A DNA stretch of 32,884 nucleotides, taken from contig JAYNIA010000027.1 of NCBI GenBank assembly GCA_038108555.1, positions 1 through 32,884 of the forward strand. The letters are read 5' to 3'. Shown piece by piece: positions 2,847 through 16,159 of this stretch; the first letter of the stretch is position 1, and every line of letters starts with the position of its first letter. The DNA comes from Nitrospinota bacterium (lineage in GTDB: Bacteria > Nitrospinota > Nitrospinia > Nitrospinales > VA-1). The position numbers and the translations under genes are program-made. The notes below the pieces were generated by a model, which ran no database searches, was not told where the DNA came from, and saw only the letters and a program-made list of their open reading frames with translations.

Positions 2847-4295
2847 ATGAATTCACAACAAAGCAAAATTCTCATTGTCGATGACGAGAAAAATATTCTC
2901 TGGGTACTGAAAAAAGGTCTGGAGAAAAACAATTATCTCGTAGATACCGCCACCAGTGGTGAAAAGGCTCTGGACCAACTAAAGAACAACGATTACCTGA
3001 TGATGTTTTCAGATATTTTTATGGAAGGCATCAGTGGGCTTGAGTTGATGGAACAGTCCCGCCAGATTTCGCCGGATCTGAAAATTGTCATCATGACCGC
3101 ACAGGATTCCATGCGTAACACCATTGATGCGATGCGTTTGGGAGCCTACGACTATCTCGCCAAGCCTTTCGATTTTGAAGATGTTTATAAGCTGATCGAA
3201 AAGGCAGAAACGGCTCAATCCATTTCTCCCCCAAAGGAAGAAGAAATGAAACAGGGCCTTTCCACCACCGCCGAAAGCGATGGCGATACCATCATTGGTA
3301 AAAGCAGGCGCATGCAGGAAATATATAAAACCATCGGTAAATCGGCGGGCTCCGATTTATCCATCCTCATCACAGGTGAAAGTGGAACCGGGAAGGAAAT
3401 GATCGCCAGCACCCTGCATCACTATTCTGAAAGGAAAGACAAACCCTTTATCTGCATCAACTGCGCCGCCATTGCAAGGGAGCTTTTGGAATCCGAATTG
3501 TTTGGACACGAACGCGGTGCGTTCACAGGGGCGGTTGAAACAAAAACAGGAAAGTTCCAACAAGCGGATGGAGGCACCTTGTTTCTCGATGAAATCGGGG
3601 ACATGGAACTCCCGTTGCAGGCAAAAATTCTACGCGTCCTGCAAAACAATGAATATTACCGGGTGGGTGGAAAAGAACCGTTGCGTTCCAACGTGCGCAT
3701 CATTGCCGCCACCAATCAAAACCTGCTCGGCATGATTGAATCGAAAAAATTTCGTGAAGATTTGTATCACCGTCTGAATGTCATCCACATAGATATGCCG
3801 CCCTTAAGGGAGAGACTGGAAGACGTTCCCCTGTTGGCCAACCACTTTATCAATAGATACTCCAAGTCTCTGGCCCGGGGCACGGTATACCTTTCACCCG
3901 ATGTGGAACGCATTCTCAGTGGTTACCACTGGCAGGGAAATATCCGCGAGTTGGAAAATGTCATTAAACGTGCCGTGATGCTGGCGCTTTCCGGACCCAT
4001 CCTTCCCGAACACCTTCCTGCGCATCTACAGGAAGAGGACGATTCTTCCAGCCAATGGGATGACCGGTTGAACCAGCTCATCCTGGATTTTTTGAAAAAC
4101 AACTATGAGGAAAAAGAAGGCATCTTGTATGACACGCTCATTCAAAAGGTGGAGAAACATCTTTTCGAAATCATCCTCGGAAACCATTCGGGCAAACAGG
4201 TCGCTGCGGCGAAAGTCCTGGGCATCAACCGAAATACCCTGAAAAGGAAAATTGATGCCATGAATATTGAAGTCAAAAAAGGTCGCATCCAATAA
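2847..4295 (+). CDS. ntrC: sigma54-dependent response regulator, NtrC/GlnG-like (REC-AAA+-Fis HTH)
   Basis: VDDE receiver domain, GESGTGKE, ESELFGHERGAFTGA, LFLDEIGD, GNIRELEN, LGINRNTL HTH. Confidence 0.88.
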   Translation: MNSQQSKILIVDDEKNILWVLKKGLEKNNYLVDTATSGEKALDQLKNNDYLMMFSDIFMEGISGLELMEQSRQISPDLKIVIMTAQDSMRNTIDAMRLGAYDYLAKPFDFEDVYKLIEKAETAQSISPPKEEEMKQGLSTTAESDGDTIIGKSRRMQEIYKTIGKSAGSDLSILITGESGTGKEMIASTLHHYSERKDKPFICINCAAIARELLESELFGHERGAFTGAVETKTGKFQQADGGTLFLDEIGDMELPLQAKILRVLQNNEYYRVGGKEPLRSNVRIIAATNQNLLGMIESKKFREDLYHRLNVIHIDMPPLRERLEDVPLLANHFINRYSKSLARGTVYLSPDVERILSGYHWQGNIRELENVIKRAVMLALSGPILPEHLPAHLQEEDDSSSQWDDRLNQLILDFLKNNYEEKEGILYDTLIQKVEKHLFEIILGNHSGKQVAAAKVLGINRNTLKRKIDAMNIEVKKGRIQ

Positions 4296-4299
4296 GACC

Positions 4300-5250
4300 G
4301 TGCAAACTCAACGCATTTTTTCTATCAAAAGTCCTCTCGGGCCACCGGTAGAAATCCTCAAACATGTTTTCCCCGCACAATCCAATAACCCTCGGGTCTC
4401 TTTTGTTGCCGGACTCCATGGCGACGAGTTGGAAGGACTTTATGTCTGCCACAAACTTCTGCGCTATCTGAAAGAACTTGAAGCCTCCAACCCCGAAGCG
4501 ATTCAGGGGGAAATCAATATTTACCCGGCAGTGAACCCGCAGGCGCTGGATAACGCCACGCGGCTCTGGCCCTTCTTTTCCCAGGATATCAACCGCACCT
4601 TTGGTCCGGGACAAACAGAGTCCCTTGCCGTTGAAACATCACAAACGCTTTTAGAGGATTTAAAAGCATCCTCAGACATTGTGGTCGATTTTCATTCAAG
4701 CAATCTCCAGTTGATGGAGCTTCCACAAATACGGGTAATAAAGGATTTTGAAAAAAAGCTCCTGCCACTGGCCAAAAAATGCAATGTGGATTTGGTTTGG
4801 GTCCATCCCAACGCAGAAATATTTGCATCGACCTTAGGCTTTAACCTGAACATCGCAAAAACTCCTACGCTGGTCATCGAAACAGGAATTTGCCATCGCA
4901 TTCACCCCGAACAGGGCGATCAAATTTTTAAAGGCGTGCTCAACCTCCTTCGTGAAGCCGGAACCCTGGACATCAAATCAGAACCTGTCAAAGAACCCCT
5001 GCTGGTCCAACCGGATCACGTGAAAATGGTTCAAACCCAGTATGCAGGATTATTTATTAAACAGGTAGAGGTGGGCCAGACCCTTGAGGAAGGGGAAAGA
5101 ATCGGCCAACTCATCGACCCGGTGGAAGGCAGTGTTCTTAAAGAAATCGTTTCTCCGTGTTCGGGACTCTTGTTCACCCTGCGCGAGCATCCTCTGGTGC
5201 ATAAAGGATCACCACTGGCACGCATTGCCGAGGACCTGGGCAAAAAATGA
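4300..5250 (+). CDS. succinylglutamate desuccinylase/aspartoacylase (AstE/AspA, M14-like) zinc hydrolase with C-terminal barrel-sandwich domain
   Basis: AGLHGDE, DINRTF, VDFHS and IETG motifs; GTG at 4300 preferred over TTG at 4267 because it aligns with the paralog N-terminus and avoids overlap with ntrC. Confidence 0.85.
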   Translation: MQTQRIFSIKSPLGPPVEILKHVFPAQSNNPRVSFVAGLHGDELEGLYVCHKLLRYLKELEASNPEAIQGEINIYPAVNPQALDNATRLWPFFSQDINRTFGPGQTESLAVETSQTLLEDLKASSDIVVDFHSSNLQLMELPQIRVIKDFEKKLLPLAKKCNVDLVWVHPNAEIFASTLGFNLNIAKTPTLVIETGICHRIHPEQGDQIFKGVLNLLREAGTLDIKSEPVKEPLLVQPDHVKMVQTQYAGLFIKQVEVGQTLEEGERIGQLIDPVEGSVLKEIVSPCSGLLFTLREHPLVHKGSPLARIAEDLGKK

Positions 5251-6239
5251 AAGAAAAAATTCTCACACTGCCGACGCCATACGGTGGCAACCTGGAACTT
5301 TATAAAAACACCTGGGGGAAATCCGGCGAACCCTTATCTATCGTCAGTGGATTGCAGGGCGACCATTTAAACGGATTGTTTTTAAATTCCCACCTCACCC
5401 AGTTTCTCGATAGCGTGGTTGAAGGACTGGACCCCAATTACAAACTCACCGGTCAGGTGCAGACTTTTCCGGTGGTCAATGCCAACGCCGTGCAATCCGG
5501 CGCTCGGCTTTGGCCATTGGACGGAATGGATATGGACCTCGCGTTTCCCGGAAACCCGGAGGGGGAAACTTCGGAAGCGATTGCATCAGCCATTTTGCAA
5601 CATACTCAGGATTCTTTCTGGGGACTGATTTTAACCTCGGCCCCGCCGCATTACGAAGATGCCCCTCATATCCAGGCCCACAATCCTGATAGCAGAGAAA
5701 AGAAAATGTGCCGCGATCTGCAGATTGAGGCGGTGCGCAATCAAAAAGAATCTTCCACCCAAAAAGTGAACCTGTTCCATCACTGGCAGGAGCAGGAAAT
5801 TTCATCGGTCATGGTTTCTGCCGGGTCGCCCCGGACCATCAATCCGCAGCAATGTGAAGTTCTGTTTCAGGGGATTCTGAATTTTATGAAAGCGGAAGGA
5901 ATACTAAAGGATCAGCGAAATAAAAAAACTGAGAGCAAAGTAAAACCACGAATTTATCAACCCCATGAAGAAGTTCTGGTAAAGACAACAACGGCAGGAA
6001 TGCTCCTCAAAGAAGTTAAAGTGGGGAGCCAACTAAAGCAGGGGCAGAAAATCGGCGAAGTCCGCGACATATATAGTGGAAAGCGGTTGGAAGAACTCAC
6101 CGCCCCGGAAGACGGAATGTTGGTCACCCTCCGACAATACCCGATTGTTTATGAAAGAGAACCAATCGCTATCATCCTATCCGGCAAAGACAACTGGCAA
6201 AAACTCGGTCACGCCATCAAGTCGATGGTGAAGGGTTAA
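5247..6239 (+). CDS. AstE/AspA-family paralog with degenerate active site
   Basis: Colinear with the upstream gene (RLWP, LVTLRQYP); ATGA overlap; HGDE is replaced by QGDH, NR by DL, DFHS by LTS. Confidence 0.8.
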   Translation: MKEKILTLPTPYGGNLELYKNTWGKSGEPLSIVSGLQGDHLNGLFLNSHLTQFLDSVVEGLDPNYKLTGQVQTFPVVNANAVQSGARLWPLDGMDMDLAFPGNPEGETSEAIASAILQHTQDSFWGLILTSAPPHYEDAPHIQAHNPDSREKKMCRDLQIEAVRNQKESSTQKVNLFHHWQEQEISSVMVSAGSPRTINPQQCEVLFQGILNFMKAEGILKDQRNKKTESKVKPRIYQPHEEVLVKTTTAGMLLKEVKVGSQLKQGQKIGEVRDIYSGKRLEELTAPEDGMLVTLRQYPIVYEREPIAIILSGKDNWQKLGHAIKSMVKG

Positions 6240-6370: not shown

Positions 6371-6931
6371 ATGCGAAAGAAAAAACGACAAAGCATTGAA
6401 GAGGCCTGGCGGGCCACGTTCTCCACCTCAGAGAGGACCAAGAAGCAGGCCGATATATCGTGGATCGTCTGGCTGTTCGAAAACCCGAGAAGTCCCCTGG
6501 CCCTGCACGGTGCCGCCAGCCTTTATACCCACGATCACATCCACCTGCTGCTGGACCGTTGTATCGACAAGGAAGATGAGGCCTTCGTCATCGGATTCTC
6601 CATGGGAAACGACACAAAAACCAACTGGCTGGATGTGTGGCTTTTTAAATTTGTCTCCCGTTTTTTGTATCCAGAAGACTACCGCTTCGATTCCCGACAT
6701 CTAAAAATTTATGATATGGGATTCCAGTTCGGCCGCACCCGCAAATTCAAAAACATCACCTCCATCGATTTTTCCAAACTTGATCTCAAAATGGACCTGT
6801 CGCGTGTCCGAAAAATATTTGATATCGATGAAAATGAACTGGAAGAGTTTGATAAGGAAATAGCGGTAGTAACCTTTGGTATCGGAAAGGAAAAACAACC
6901 CCCTCTGTCCCCCTTGTCAGGGGGAATCTAA
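6371..6931 (+). CDS. hypothetical protein with Coq4-like HDxxH-x11-E metal-binding motif
   Basis: HDHIHLLLDRCIDKEDE; AGGA upstream of ATG. Confidence 0.7.
   Translation: MRKKKRQSIEEAWRATFSTSERTKKQADISWIVWLFENPRSPLALHGAASLYTHDHIHLLLDRCIDKEDEAFVIGFSMGNDTKTNWLDVWLFKFVSRFLYPEDYRFDSRHLKIYDMGFQFGRTRKFKNITSIDFSKLDLKMDLSRVRKIFDIDENELEEFDKEIAVVTFGIGKEKQPPLSPLSGGI
6897..6928 (-). repeat. dispersed GC-rich palindromic (REP-like) repeat, copy overlapping the ORF 3' end
   Basis: Reverse complement GATTCCCCCTGACAAGGGGGACAGAGGGGGTT resembles 31632-31662. Confidence 0.65.
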
Positions 6932-6953
6932 AAGCTCTTCTAGAAGCTTTTTT
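6930..6953 (+). terminator. candidate intrinsic (possibly bidirectional) terminator
   Basis: AAAAGCT...AGCTTTTTT inverted repeat with T tract, between convergent genes. Confidence 0.35.
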
Positions 6954-7003
6954 GGTTTGGTTCGTCTTAGGAGCCACGACCATTTGGCCGCCGGGCCTCC
7001 CGG

Positions 7004-7246
7004 CTAGACGTGCATGAGGAAAAGGATCATACCACCCAGGCACAGCCCCGTACCCAGCAAGGTCATTAGGGTTCCGCGCAGGGATTTGGATTTGGCTCCA
7101 TCCGATTTTTTTTTGCCGTAACGGTTTTTGGCATCTTTTTCAAACTCCTCTTCTTTTCTTTCTATGTTGCGGCAGATACTGAGCACCACTCCCCCCAACC
7201 CAAACAAAACGACCGCCCAAATCTGTTCCACCACCAGCATATCCAT
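7004..7246 (-). CDS. small membrane protein with two TM helices, hypothetical
   Basis: Two hydrophobic segments separated by a charged loop; GGAG SD upstream. Confidence 0.65.
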   Translation of the reverse strand: MDMLVVEQIWAVVLFGLGGVVLSICRNIERKEEEFEKDAKNRYGKKKSDGAKSKSLRGTLMTLLGTGLCLGGMILFLMHV

Positions 7247-7429
7247 GAGTCACTCCAATCCTTTCACTTACTGTTTCTTATCGGAACAAAAACCGCTTAC
7301 TTTTGTGAGAGCCGCCAGTATAGCAATTAACGCTTAATAAACAAATAGTTCTAAGCCACAAAAGGTTGATGCTCCGTAACGAATGGGATAAAATTAAGGG
7401 CCAAAGTGTTGCAATGCCCCTGTTTCCTC

Positions 7430-8167
7430 ATGAGCGCAGCGAAAACCATAAAAAACAATATATTAATCCAGAACGACTCCGGCTACCGGTATTCGATAGA
7501 ACCCTTTTTATTGGCAGATTTTGCCAGGCTGCTGCCGGGTCAGGAAGTGCTGGACATTGGTACCGGTTGCGGCATCATTCCGCTTCTCATGCTCCACCGG
7601 GAACCGGAACTCAGGATAACCGGAATTGAAATCCAGGAATCGGCTGCTGCAAATGCCAGGGAAAATGCTTCGGGAAATCAGGAGAAAATTAAAATCATCC
7701 AGGGTGATTTTCTTGAAACGGATTTTAACCAGAACCAGTTTGATTTAATCGTGTCAAATCCGCCTTACCGCAAAATCAATTCTGGCCGCATTAATCCGGA
7801 TGAAGGAAAAGCCATTGCCCGCCATGAGTTGAAACTGAGTCTGCCCACCCTGCTTGACCATGCCAGACCGTGCTTGAAACGAAACGGTCATATCGCACTG
7901 GCCTACCCCCCCCTGCGGTTGCAGGAAACGTTACGCGAGTTGGAAAAAAGGGAACTGTTCCCTGCGCGGATTCGTTTCATTCATGGGAACAGGGATGCAG
8001 AGGCTAAAATTTTTCTGGTCGATGCCATCAAAGAAAAGAAAAGCGATTTAATAGTCGATTCTCCACTCTATGTTTATAATAAGGACGGAAGCTATTCTCA
8101 GGAGATGCAGGAGATCTATGATTCCTTTAATTGTGCTGACAGGCCCGACGACCTCGGGGAAAAGTGA
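7430..8167 (+). CDS. tRNA1(Val) A37 N6-methyltransferase-like (TrmN6/YfiC family)
   Basis: QNDSGYRYSIEPFLLADF, VLDIGTGCG SAM motif, IVSNPPY, IARHE; ATG at 7430 chosen over TTG at 7406. Confidence 0.85.
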   Translation: MSAAKTIKNNILIQNDSGYRYSIEPFLLADFARLLPGQEVLDIGTGCGIIPLLMLHREPELRITGIEIQESAAANARENASGNQEKIKIIQGDFLETDFNQNQFDLIVSNPPYRKINSGRINPDEGKAIARHELKLSLPTLLDHARPCLKRNGHIALAYPPLRLQETLRELEKRELFPARIRFIHGNRDAEAKIFLVDAIKEKKSDLIVDSPLYVYNKDGSYSQEMQEIYDSFNCADRPDDLGEK

Positions 8168-11100
8168 AACCGCACTTGCATTGGCCCGGCAACTGAACAC
8201 AGAAATTATCAGCGCCGATTCCATGCAGGTGTACAAATACTTCGATATCGGTACGGCCAAACCCTCCGCAAAAGCACGGCAAAGCATTCCCCATCACCTG
8301 ATCGACATCCTGGAACCGGATGAGGAATTCAACGCTTTCGACTTTAAAACACAGGCTCTGGAAAAAATTAATGACCTGATGGGTCAGAATAAAGTCCCCA
8401 TTGTAGTGGGAGGAACCGCGCTCTACCTCAAAGTATTAATTCAGGACTACGACTGTGCAGTGGAAATATCTGAAGAAACCAAAAAAAATATCCAGCAGGA
8501 TATTCTCGAACAGGGGGTCGAGCAGGTTTATAAAAAACTGCAGGCGATTGATCCGGTTTTTGCTGAAAAAATATCTGAAACAGATTCCGTCCGAATCGAA
8601 CGGGCGTTGGGGGTTTACCTTGATACAGAAAAACCCTTTTCAGAATTTCACAAGGAAGATTCCGCATCTGAAATACAATTTCCCATTTATACGTTCATCC
8701 TGGACTGGGATCGGTCAGAACTCTATTCAAAAATCGACCAGCGTGTGGATGATATGATTGAGGCGGGACTTGAAAATGAAGTGAAAATCATACTGGATCG
8801 TGGGTATTCAGCCGATTTAAAACCCCTAAAAAGCATCGGCTATGCTCAAATGACCCGCTACCATCAGGGTGAATTGACTTTGGACAGAGCCATCTACGAA
8901 ATAAAAAGGGAAACGCGTCACTACGCTAAGCGGCAATTGACCTGGTTTAGAAAAATGCATGAAGCACAAACCCTTCAAACCGGCCGACAAGACACCCCGG
9001 AAACCCTCTGCCAAAAATTACTTTCGCGCTTGCCCAATATAGCGGCTTGTCTACTTACACTTTTTCTGGCATTGAGTGTCGGCTCAAATTTGGAAGCGAA
9101 GGATACGGCGGAAAAATTTGAAAAAGCAAAAGGTTTTTTCTCTAAAAAGGAATGGGCCAAAGCCAAAAACCAGTTCCTCGCTATCCAAAACACGGCCCCG
9201 GATTTTCAGGAAAGTAAACGTTCGAGGTTTCTGCTCAGCCTCATACATCTTGAAAACAAAAAATACGACAAAGCGGCAGAACTTTTAGACCCTCTTGTTA
9301 AAAAGTACCCGGAGGTAGAAGATTATATTTTATTGAATCTTGCCAAAGCGGAATCCCTCAACAAAAAGCATGAAAAAGCCAAAGAGCATGTTGAAAAGCT
9401 CCTGAAAAAATTCCCGGAAACCCAACTCTATGCCGAGGCAAGAATTATTCTCGCAGACACCCATATTCAAACGGGCACTAACGAAAAAGCGATCGAAGTA
9501 ATCACAGAAACCATTCAAACGATAAAAACCTCTTTTTACCAAAGGCAATTTAAATCCTATCTGCCCGAACTCATTTTTAAACTAGCCACCCGCCAGGAAA
9601 AATCCGGGAATAAAAAAGAAGCATATTTAAATTTCCGGAAGCTCCACTACAAATACCCGAACCATGAATTGACTCCGGATGCAGAGGCTGAAATAAAAAA
9701 ATTGTTAAAAGCTACGGATACAAAGGAAGTCCCTTTAACCCTGAGGGAGCATACCCATAGGATTGAGGAATTGTTTAAGGGGGTGAGGTACAAAGAAATC
9801 ATTTCTGAAATTGGTAAAATCAAAAAAACAAACAATCCCATGCCGGGAAGATTTTATTTTTTCCTGTCGAATGCCCACCGCGGATTGCGCGACCGAAGAA
9901 AAGCAAACGTTGCCCTGCAGGAATTTTCAAAACTTTATCCAGAACACGCCCAAATTCAAAAGGCCAAATTCAATATCGGTCGCAACCTGTGGAATCTTGG
10001 CAAACCCATGGCAGGCGCCAAGTACTTTAAAGAAGTTTCCGAGGACTCTTCATCCGAACGAGCCATCAGGGCCTTATTTTTTCTTGGGAAAATTTACGAA
10101 GAACAAAAGAAATACCCCGAAGCGTTGAAAACCTATCAATCCGCATTAAAAAAATACCCTGAAAATTTTTACGGGCAATGGGCCGGATGGAGATTGGGAT
10201 GGGTGAATTATATTGACGGCAAATTTGACAAAGCTTTTGAACGGTTTCAGGATGTTGCCAAACGATTTCCTGATGGATCTTTTATAGAGTACAACCTGTA
10301 TTGGAGCGCAAAATCCGCTGAGAAAATGGGCAACAAGGAAGATGCCCGGAAAATTTTTACCGAGGTTGCCAGCCTCTATCCCTACACCTTTCATGGAATT
10401 CGCGCCAAGGAAAAGATGTTGTCGGAGGGTGTCAGTTTTCCCGAAAATAATTCGGAAAACTCTTCACCAAATAAGCAAATCAAACTGGATCGTGCATTGA
10501 CTCCACGGGAAAAATTTCATCATATCCGGGCCCTGGAGTTATCCGCCCTTGGCCTGAACAATGAAGCACGAAGTGAGATACATCAACTTGAAAAATCCAT
10601 TCGAAAAACTCTCACCGGGGTGTTGTGGCTTTCAAATCTTTATCACCAGGCCGGGGGTTATCCTGAATCGCTGCGGTTATTGCAATTGTATAAAGACTTT
10701 GCCACCAAGTCAGGAGAACGTACCCTGTCTCCGCGTTTCTGGAAATATTTTTTCCCACTTGCTTACAGTGAGGTGGTTGCAAAAAACGCCAAGTACCGGG
10801 AAGTCGACCCGTATTTCGTGAATGGAATCATCCGCCAGGAAAGCCTTTTCGACAGTCACGCCCTGTCCCCTGCCGGTGCTCGCGGACTGATGCAGATCAT
10901 GCCGGCAACCGGCAAAAGGCTTTATCCCAAAACAAAACTTAAAAAACCTTTTGAAGCGGATGTTCTTTTCGAACCCGACTTAAATATCAGGCTGGGAGTC
11001 AAATACGTGAGTCAGTTGAACAAACGTTTTGGCAAAAACGGAACCCATATTTTAATTTCCTACAATGCCGGTCCCCATATTCTAAAAAAATGGCTGAAAC

Positions 11101-11225
11101 GGTTTGGACATTTAAATGACCTGGATGTATTTATCGAATCCATTCCCTACCCGGAAACCCGGCGCTATGTAAAACATGTTTTGAGAAACCGCGGAATTTA
11201 CAAGGCCCTGTATTCTCCATCTTAA
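8118..11225 (+). CDS. miaA: fusion protein: tRNA dimethylallyltransferase MiaA + hydrophobic signal/TM segment + TPR array + soluble lytic transglycosylase (Slt70-like)
   Basis: GPTTSGKS, ISADSMQVY, DIGTAKP, VGGTALY, TRHYAKRQLTWF (MiaA); IAACLLTLFLALSV; TPRs; IIRQES, GARGLMQIMP, SYNAG, ESIPYPETRRYV (SLT); no in-frame stop; GGAG SD before ATG 8118. Confidence 0.88.
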   Translation: MIPLIVLTGPTTSGKSETALALARQLNTEIISADSMQVYKYFDIGTAKPSAKARQSIPHHLIDILEPDEEFNAFDFKTQALEKINDLMGQNKVPIVVGGTALYLKVLIQDYDCAVEISEETKKNIQQDILEQGVEQVYKKLQAIDPVFAEKISETDSVRIERALGVYLDTEKPFSEFHKEDSASEIQFPIYTFILDWDRSELYSKIDQRVDDMIEAGLENEVKIILDRGYSADLKPLKSIGYAQMTRYHQGELTLDRAIYEIKRETRHYAKRQLTWFRKMHEAQTLQTGRQDTPETLCQKLLSRLPNIAACLLTLFLALSVGSNLEAKDTAEKFEKAKGFFSKKEWAKAKNQFLAIQNTAPDFQESKRSRFLLSLIHLENKKYDKAAELLDPLVKKYPEVEDYILLNLAKAESLNKKHEKAKEHVEKLLKKFPETQLYAEARIILADTHIQTGTNEKAIEVITETIQTIKTSFYQRQFKSYLPELIFKLATRQEKSGNKKEAYLNFRKLHYKYPNHELTPDAEAEIKKLLKATDTKEVPLTLREHTHRIEELFKGVRYKEIISEIGKIKKTNNPMPGRFYFFLSNAHRGLRDRRKANVALQEFSKLYPEHAQIQKAKFNIGRNLWNLGKPMAGAKYFKEVSEDSSSERAIRALFFLGKIYEEQKKYPEALKTYQSALKKYPENFYGQWAGWRLGWVNYIDGKFDKAFERFQDVAKRFPDGSFIEYNLYWSAKSAEKMGNKEDARKIFTEVASLYPYTFHGIRAKEKMLSEGVSFPENNSENSSPNKQIKLDRALTPREKFHHIRALELSALGLNNEARSEIHQLEKSIRKTLTGVLWLSNLYHQAGGYPESLRLLQLYKDFATKSGERTLSPRFWKYFFPLAYSEVVAKNAKYREVDPYFVNGIIRQESLFDSHALSPAGARGLMQIMPATGKRLYPKTKLKKPFEADVLFEPDLNIRLGVKYVSQLNKRFGKNGTHILISYNAGPHILKKWLKRFGHLNDLDVFIESIPYPETRRYVKHVLRNRGIYKALYSPS

Positions 11226-14923: not shown

Positions 14924-16159
14924 TCAGCAATGCAATCGGGAGGTCAATTGCTGGAGAGCGTCGGAAAAAATAGCATGCAACTCGCTTCGGATTTTTTTAG
15001 AGTCGTACTCCACCATCGACCCGCCACTTTTTAGGAAATCAATTTGTTCCTGAATTTTCAAGCAACTGTTTTCAGGGTCGCCCTTTTTTTCCCACAGCAT
15101 TAAATCACAAAACTTGATTCCCGCTTTTACAGAGCTGATCAACTGGGGATTAATTGCAAACCCCCTCTTTTTCAAGTGTTCGCTTATTTCAAGGACTTTA
15201 TTAAACTCAACTCCAGCCTCGTCATAATTTTTATCGAGTACATATTGCAGAGCTTTCATCATGGCGAGTTCTTTATTTCCCTTGAAATGCGGATGGGGAG
15301 GCGGACCTTTAAAATAACGATTTTCCAATTCAATCAATAATGCCCATGCGTTCTGGCGGGTTTTTGCAGCGGACAAAGGATGCTCTGACGGAAGGTTTTT
15401 GTTTTTGGGATTGATCTGCTCGGAAATGTAAAACCATGCAAGGGTTTTCATGGCCAGAGGCACAGAGGCGCCTTTCTTTAGGATCGCATGATCAATATGA
15501 TTCAGGCCCACCTGCCTCAAGTCTCTGCCGCCCTGCATAATAAAATTACCAAATCCTCCCAACCGACTGTTTCCATAGCGATACATTCCCAGACCGAAGT
15601 ACCCATCCACCAAATTGGGATTAAGAGCCAAAGCTTCTTCAAGGTGATTATCTGCCTGGAAACCATTGACCAAAGCCTGAAAGAGATTGCCCTGACCGTA
15701 TTCAAAAATTCCTATATAACCCTCTGCAGCCCCCAGGAAAAGTGAGGCTTCGGCTTCCTGTTCTTGTGTTTTAGATTCATCATTTAAAATTTCATTGGCC
15801 AGATCTTTCACGCGATTGCTGTGGAACAAGAATTCTTTAGAAACTTTTTTAATTCGATATTTACTGGTAAAAGCCAGCGTATGCGTCAACTCCCCCAACA
15901 TTCCGGCATAGTTGAAATAATATTTCATCAACTCGACCCTGTTTTTCAGGGAGGGTGTGGCAGACTCCAACCGGTTGATCTCGCCCTGAAATCGCCCAAA
16001 CCATTCATCAAAATGGTAATACATGGAATCCTCGAGAGCCAGGGGTGCCATTTCGTCCGCCGTCAGCTTGTCCAACTCAGCGAATGAAGGCCGACCCAAC
16101 ACATCGGCACTAACCAAAAGAGCAAGAAAAACACATAGAGTGGTGAATTTTGATTTCAT
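14924..16159 (-). CDS. exported alpha-helical/TPR-like hypothetical protein
   Basis: 411-aa ORF with signal peptide; TPR-like segment LEEALALNPNLVDGYFGLGMY. Confidence 0.7.
   Translation of the reverse strand: MKSKFTTLCVFLALLVSADVLGRPSFAELDKLTADEMAPLALEDSMYYHFDEWFGRFQGEINRLESATPSLKNRVELMKYYFNYAGMLGELTHTLAFTSKYRIKKVSKEFLFHSNRVKDLANEILNDESKTQEQEAEASLFLGAAEGYIGIFEYGQGNLFQALVNGFQADNHLEEALALNPNLVDGYFGLGMYRYGNSRLGGFGNFIMQGGRDLRQVGLNHIDHAILKKGASVPLAMKTLAWFYISEQINPKNKNLPSEHPLSAAKTRQNAWALLIELENRYFKGPPPHPHFKGNKELAMMKALQYVLDKNYDEAGVEFNKVLEISEHLKKRGFAINPQLISSVKAGIKFCDLMLWEKKGDPENSCLKIQEQIDFLKSGGSMVEYDSKKIRSELHAIFSDALQQLTSRLHC

Follow-up and report, generated by a model that had tools for sequence, protein, structure and literature searches.

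How can an enzyme that modifies tRNA in the cytoplasm and an enzyme that cleaves peptidoglycan in the periplasm be specified by one reading frame? The question is raised by a 32,884-nucleotide stretch of DNA from a Nitrospinota bacterium (GenBank assembly GCA_038108555.1, contig JAYNIA010000027.1; hereafter the window), in which positions 8118–11225 of the plus strand translate as a single stop-free frame of 1035 residues, a 119.8-kDa precursor whose one-frame organization is conserved across the order Nitrospinales. A sequence-only reading had described the frame as a complete MiaA of about 304 residues, an internal signal-like segment (9030–9098), TPRs and an intact SLT domain, and translation and profile matches agree with this layout. 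The gene is fixed in the order and encodes an intact MiaA and an intact TPR-containing Slt, joined by the Slt protein's own signal, which has lost its initiating methionine and n-region. The product is probably (roughly 0.65) a housekeeping polyprotein, which signal peptidase I (LepB) would cut into a periplasmic Slt and a MiaA that is either tethered to the membrane or released by RseP.

The MiaA domain comprises residues 1–304 (8118–9029, plus strand), and its last helix constitutes the positive n-side of the signal that follows. Residues 4–287 match TIGR00174 with 312.5 bits (curated cut-off, 148.65), and residues 4–288 align uninterrupted, through core and insertion domain, with MiaA proteins of solved structure, with E values of 1e-56 to 5e-59 (residues 13–297 of 2zm5). 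Conserved motifs include the P-loop (GPTTSGKS in the window), Asp34 (aligned to Asp42 of chain 2zm5), HHL, GGT and RQxTW. Conservation was assessed in a junction set of 86 loci, one per gene copy, of which 83 or 84 were scorable depending on the analysis: L016 lacks MiaA, L052 was missed in some counts, and L097 was misframed in the conservation alignment, being correct in the synonymous-constraint analysis. The catalytic Asp34 is retained in 83 of the 86 rows (two gaps, one misframed) and Lys15 in 83. The frame of 1035 residues does not have the form of a stand-alone cytoplasmic protein of about 310, and the fused gene is the sole MiaA of the genome, which also encodes miaB and seven tRNAs with A36-A37-A38; the fused enzyme would prenylate A37 of UNN-reading tRNAs from dimethylallyl diphosphate (DMAPP). 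In 17 fused copies from genera g3, g8, g9, g14 and g18, Lys, Glu, Asn or Arg takes the place of residue 14, the second glycine of the P-loop (GPTxSGKS). One 59%-complete genome (G003; locus L014 on G003:C6) loses the MiaA frame in an A-run around residue 122, probably through a sequencing error.

The Slt half begins with TPR/alpha-helical repeats and a linker (residues 328–886; 9099–10775, plus strand), with Lys328 as the predicted mature N-terminus and TPR-family matches between residues ~333 and 683, as befits a long N-terminal helical repeat region. It ends in a GH23, Slt70-type SLT catalytic domain (residues 887–1001; 10776–11120, plus strand), which matches PF01464 with 92.3 bits against a cut-off of 21.3 and has Slt70-type enzymes as its best structural relatives (E values of 1e-23 to 1e-27). 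The RQES, GLMQ and YNAG motifs read from the letters alone are all in the translated protein. The catalytic residue Glu908 (10839–10841), part of RQES, is found in 80 of 86 rows (five gaps, one misframed), and the GLMQ and YNAG motifs vary little or not at all where covered. Because catalytic residues are this constant among the covering rows, both halves look active. Purifying selection acts on both: dN/dS within six genera is 0.06–0.13 for MiaA, 0.10–0.18 for the TPRs and 0.03–0.11 for the SLT domain, values that are rough, with synonymous sites near saturation.

The Slt half falls below the cut-offs of the Slt70 equivalog PRK11619 (NF008631; 114.9 versus 536 bits) and of the BB0259 flagellar assembly transglycosylase (NF047373; 174.5 versus 234 bits, spanning residues 311–1033). 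A flagellum-specific role was considered and found unsupported. Since the fusion persists in two single-contig genomes in which flgI was not found (G092 and G093), the Slt half is more likely a general wall-remodeling enzyme than a flagellar one. The remaining SLT-domain matches in the window genome are short frames. Many members of the order carry a second long TPR-SLT paralog with an ordinary N-terminal signal (L197–L202, ~800 residues), which was not found in the window genome or its genus. Two further observations concern single genomes: G069, with 5% contamination, holds two fusion copies (L099 and L100) on separate contigs, and in a 98%-complete genome flgI lies in pieces (G072:C10:146785-147829), which suggests ongoing flagellar loss in genus g20.

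The window comes from a metagenome-type assembly of 86 contigs, and an assembly error, or a stop codon that a single strain lost recently, might be suspected at such a junction. This is hardly credible in view of the distribution. The junction is crossed with zero indels by contigs assembled from two other samples of this study (X3, 7925–9388; X4, 8404–9218). X1, which may be the source, is not independent; the coverage of a further run, X5, from a relative 90–95% alike, excludes the junction. Among 41 genomes searched, the whole protein recurs in a single frame at 38–81% identity in four families, single-contig genomes included, and the cultured species Nitrospina watsonii encodes a 1056-residue fusion that is annotated as MiaA only (WP_282010411.1). 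A phylum-wide search with query residues 1–461 covered 120 genomes, 102 from the order and 18 from other orders. Within the order 96 of 102 genomes match, and 93 read through the junction without a stop; in three the match breaks off at a contig end (after residue 327 in G002, inside MiaA in G063 and G090), and the six without a match are incomplete. No stop codon lies at the junction in any covering genome of the order. The fusion called by the sequence-only reading, rather than an indel at the junction or separate genes in relatives, is thereby borne out.

Outside the order the arrangement differs. Fifteen of the 18 genomes match, and all 15 have a free MiaA (frames of 310–362 residues, one of them partial). 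A separate TPR-SLT gene is the next gene downstream of miaA in 10 of these 15 loci, with its likely start overlapping or abutting the miaA stop in seven, and the slt ortholog lies on another contig in the remaining five. All three trees, one of MiaA and two of SLT, unite the fused copies in a single clade with support of 100. In the second SLT tree, built with 18 fused rows after three duplicates were dropped, the fused SLTs group with the unfused orthologs of the phylum (SH-aLRT 92); the FastTree version leaves their sister group unresolved (support 39). Because sister orders have free and mostly adjacent miaA and slt genes and the fused copies are one clade, a single fusion of operon neighbors in the ancestor of the order would be the simplest history, judged from synteny and trees that are unrooted. 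Among the best 150 matches from 1.84 billion representatives, the fusions score 616–1135 bits, followed by fragments, free MiaA and free SLT proteins at ~300 bits or less. No independent fusion outside the order occurs among them, and named relatives are Nitrospinales or Nitrospinota. One long outsider, P0188, proved to be a double-SLT protein without MiaA.

Candidate split forms within the order were also inspected. The 706-residue P0292 starts after the signal and was rejected, as were other short matches, whose ends lie at scattered places; the tails of two of them are presumably sequencing adapters. Three short proteins run against this picture or stand outside it. The singleton P0319 (306 residues, from a contig of 1135 bases) begins as a MiaA of Nitrospinales type, continues after WFRK with the tail of another, ordinary MiaA, and may be a chimera or a rare reversion of the fusion; P0312 ends within the hydrophobic core and P0318 at residue 397, each on one contig.

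What joins the two halves has the properties of a Sec signal. The segment LPNIAACLLTLFLALSVGSNLEA (residues 305–327, 23 residues; 9030–9098, plus strand) is the only part of the protein in which 19-residue hydropathy exceeds 1.2 (1.82; next highest, 1.18), and it consists of a hydrophobic core, a polar c-region and a predicted LepB cleavage site, LEA|K. Conservation is lower in this segment than anywhere else in the protein (0.41 versus 0.70), yet its anatomy is common to the junctions: the last MiaA helix with Lys300, Leu-Pro, ~12–13 hydrophobic residues, Pro or Gly, an Ala 5–7 residues further on, and then charges. Net charge ahead of the core is positive in 77 of 84 junctions and negative in none. 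Core hydrophobicity equals that of the N-terminal signals of 51 unfused homologs (KD19 of 2.03 versus 2.04); an insertion scale was used in this comparison. By heuristic rules the junctions have a positive n-side, a short core, a helix breaker, small residues at –3 and –1 (the window's own –3 residue is Leu) and no Pro at +1, in keeping with the –3/–1 rule for signal peptidase sites given in PMC8844934. The segment departs from a Sec/signal peptidase I substrate in not standing at the N-terminus of the chain, since it begins at residue 305.

The cleavage motif is also far more frequent than expected. A strict small-x-Ala site lies 5–11 residues past the core in 72 of 84 junctions, compared with 21.7 in composition-preserving shuffles (maximum, 34 in 1000 shuffles), and the rate per genus is 0.87 versus 0.29 in shuffled sequences. 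The same rule finds a site in 24 of 51 N-terminal segments of unfused homologs, a set that appears to include lipoproteins, and in 4 of 23 internal hydrophobic segments of the window genome, a rough comparison set, buried cores among them; under the lenient rule every scored junction has a site. Other export routes were rejected: a lipobox-like 4-mer for signal peptidase II occurs in 23 of 84 junctions, always at the start of the core, and an RR pair for the Tat route precedes the core in one of 84.

A mechanism can be proposed on this basis. Translation would initiate at the miaA ATG, and MiaA would fold in the cytoplasm; the internal core would then enter SecYEG as an N-in signal anchor and the TPR-Slt would be exported. 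LepB would cut after Ala327, yielding an 82.6-kDa periplasmic lytic transglycosylase, while the 37.2-kDa MiaA would stay anchored to the cytoplasmic side of the membrane through its 23-residue tail or be freed by RseP. LepB and RseP are both encoded in the genome, and PMC10202637 mentions, in a table and in the title of a cited work, a role for site-2 proteases on signal peptides after their release. Overlapping and adjacent in the ancestor of the order, the miaA and slt genes would have become one gene in a single event and would have been kept joined since, with cleavage restoring both products. A single fusion of operon neighbors would explain the pairing without functional coupling of the two enzymes.

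Several points weigh against this cleaved polyprotein. The window's own site, with Leu at –3, fails the strict rule and passes only the lenient one, and 12 of 84 junctions fail the strict rule, chiefly in two genera (g8, 2 of 7; g13, 2 of 5). Core position and site rules are heuristics rather than SignalP predictions, and related sequences are not independent. The conserved AxA may also serve regulated cleavage, as in RsiV, where signal peptidase cuts behind an internal membrane segment at such a site (PMC4183432). Finally, no tested case of a folded enzyme of ~300 residues preceding a signal was found in the open literature.

The same junction could instead belong to a bitopic chain, uncleaved or cleaved only conditionally, with MiaA inside and Slt outside and a possible link of tRNA modification or DMAPP to wall remodeling. 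Such a chain would fit selection for the joint form, the junction being stop-free in every covering genome of the order; persistence alone is not proof of benefit, however, because reversal requires a new start and ribosome-binding site inside the coding region, and sister orders manage with separate, sometimes unlinked genes. The median uncharged run of 21 residues could span a membrane, but only ~12–13 of these residues are strongly hydrophobic before Pro/Gly and charges follow, and the cleavage motif is far above both chance and the rate in the genome's internal hydrophobic segments. Regulated cleavage by signal peptidase does exist for RsiV and RsiP (PMC4183432 and PMC8844934). There is also an unexplained Cys in the core (Cys311; 9048–9050 in the window). 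It is present in 62 of the 84 fusions and, counted by genus, in one or more members of 14 of 20; of the unfused homologs 17 of 51 have a core Cys, as do 47 of 187 signal-like segments at N-termini in the window genome. We regard a bitopic chain as unlikely, though still a serious contender; of the two options offered by the sequence-only reading, the conserved –3/–1 site and short core clearly favor the polyprotein cut by signal peptidase, and the proposed coupling is left without positive evidence. More doubtful still is a sensor, in which conditional cleavage, with the core Cys or a TPR ligand gating LepB, would tie release of Slt to release of membrane-held MiaA. If true, it would link UNN decoding or the supply of DMAPP, shared with undecaprenyl phosphate synthesis, to peptidoglycan turnover throughout this order of marine nitrite oxidizers. 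Autoregulation through MiaA-sensitive codons in the signal was rejected, as these are not enriched (UUR/Leu, 0.30 versus 0.32; UCN/Ser, 0.69 versus 0.72).

Two products might also arise from the one frame by initiation. If most Slt were translated as a normal preprotein from an internal start, either Met280 or some near-cognate codon, the full chain would mainly supply MiaA. Residue 280 is Met (ATG) in 52 of 83 junctions, codons 276–285 show a mild synonymous peak (z = 2.4), and unfused f9 orthologs have long n-regions. The first two weigh against the cut polyprotein as the source of Slt; other observations oppose an internal start. The remaining 31 of 83 junctions have V, L, I, S or Q at position 280, only five of them with GTG; no ATG, GTG or TTG occurs from residue 281 to the core in 33 of 83 or from W276 to the core in 12 of 83. 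The peak is absent in two genera in which all members have Met280 (g17, 0.98; g13, 0.95), and other windows deviate about as far in the negative direction. With correction for amino acids, codons 1–10 show strong synonymous constraint (z = 4.9) and codons 286–335 none. Pairing to the anti-Shine-Dalgarno sequence is –7.4 kcal/mol for the miaA ATG, which follows a Shine-Dalgarno-like AGGAG (8109–8113, plus strand) within the 3' end of the upstream methyltransferase gene, and just –2.2 kcal/mol for Met280. It is 0 kcal/mol for the TTG at 9030, before which the earlier reading had likewise seen no Shine-Dalgarno sequence; only 10 of 83 junctions have a start codon at this position (residue 305), and the TTG was rejected as a start. 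Within the gene there is no plus-strand promoter-like or terminator site, site counts being at chance level. An internal start would in any case leave MiaA carrying the signal, with which alone it can be made, and as the main source of Slt it is improbable.

Programmed frameshifting, or a stop codon hidden in the gene, could in principle release a free MiaA. For each shifted frame, 45 of 84 loci do have a stop no more than 15 codons from residue 294, yet stop distances range from 1 to 202 codons with no common position, and slippery heptamers occur at scattered places in 16 of 84. Neither a slippery site nor an off-frame stop at the junction is shared among the 84 loci, which makes this route very improbable.

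Upstream, a TrmN-like S-adenosylmethionine methyltransferase gene (7406–8167, plus strand; 83.6 bits, below the cut-off of 350) overlaps the start of miaA by 50 bases. It also precedes miaA in 6 of the 15 outgroup loci and is an ancestral operon neighbor, so that two possible A37-modifying genes stand side by side, sister orders included. Elsewhere in the window, a tandem pair of AstE/AspA-family deacylase genes follows a sigma-54 two-component pair (4267–6239), a stretch of ~470 bases (6932–7405) is free of long open reading frames, and the frames at 6371–6931 (186 residues) and 14924–16159 (411 residues) have no Pfam match. Two minus-strand tRNA genes at the contig start (4–179) are the only Rfam matches in the window.

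An order-wide, cross-membrane polyprotein of two known enzymes is thus real and apparently undescribed: no description of a MiaA-Slt fusion was found in the open-access literature. Descriptions of bacterial polyproteins with parts in two compartments are rare. Here one part is a core enzyme of translation, the fusion is fixed throughout an order of nitrite oxidizers that are abundant, and a cultured species has it. If the chain is cut as predicted, Sec and LepB can process a signal behind a 300-residue enzyme, operon neighbors can fuse across a membrane free of cost, and MiaA can work from a membrane tether. The order's main long lytic transglycosylase has been overlooked because databases name the protein MiaA only, and the fusion is a candidate marker for the order.

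The closest parallel in organization is the Bradyrhizobium japonicum FbcH cytochrome b-c1 precursor, in which one gene gives two proteins by cleavage of an internal signal-like segment after Ala-x-Ala. FbcH joins two subunits of one membrane complex, whereas the enzymes joined here are functionally unrelated, one cytoplasmic and the other periplasmic. RsiV and RsiP, as described in PMC4183432 and PMC8844934, share with the fusion an N-in segment and a conserved AxA-type site, acted on by signal peptidase and then by a site-2 protease; in contrast to it, their cytoplasmic parts are short (in RsiV the cut falls at residue 66), their cleavage is regulated and their products are regulatory, whereas 304 enzyme residues precede the signal here. 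The first half resembles E. coli-type and other MiaA proteins (PDB 2ZM5/3FOZ, 2QGN and 3D3Q; TIGR00174) in its continuous match over residues 4–288 and its motifs, and departs from them in that the last helix, instead of ending a free protein of ~310 residues, runs into the signal and 708 further residues. The second half shares its catalytic domain, Glu908, GLMQ and YNAG with Slt70-type enzymes (PDB 1QSA, 5OHU, 6FBT and 5O1J) and the Borrelia BB0259 type (NF047373), and is set apart from both by scores below the two NCBIfam cut-offs, by its TPR-like repeats and by a signal that lies inside the chain.

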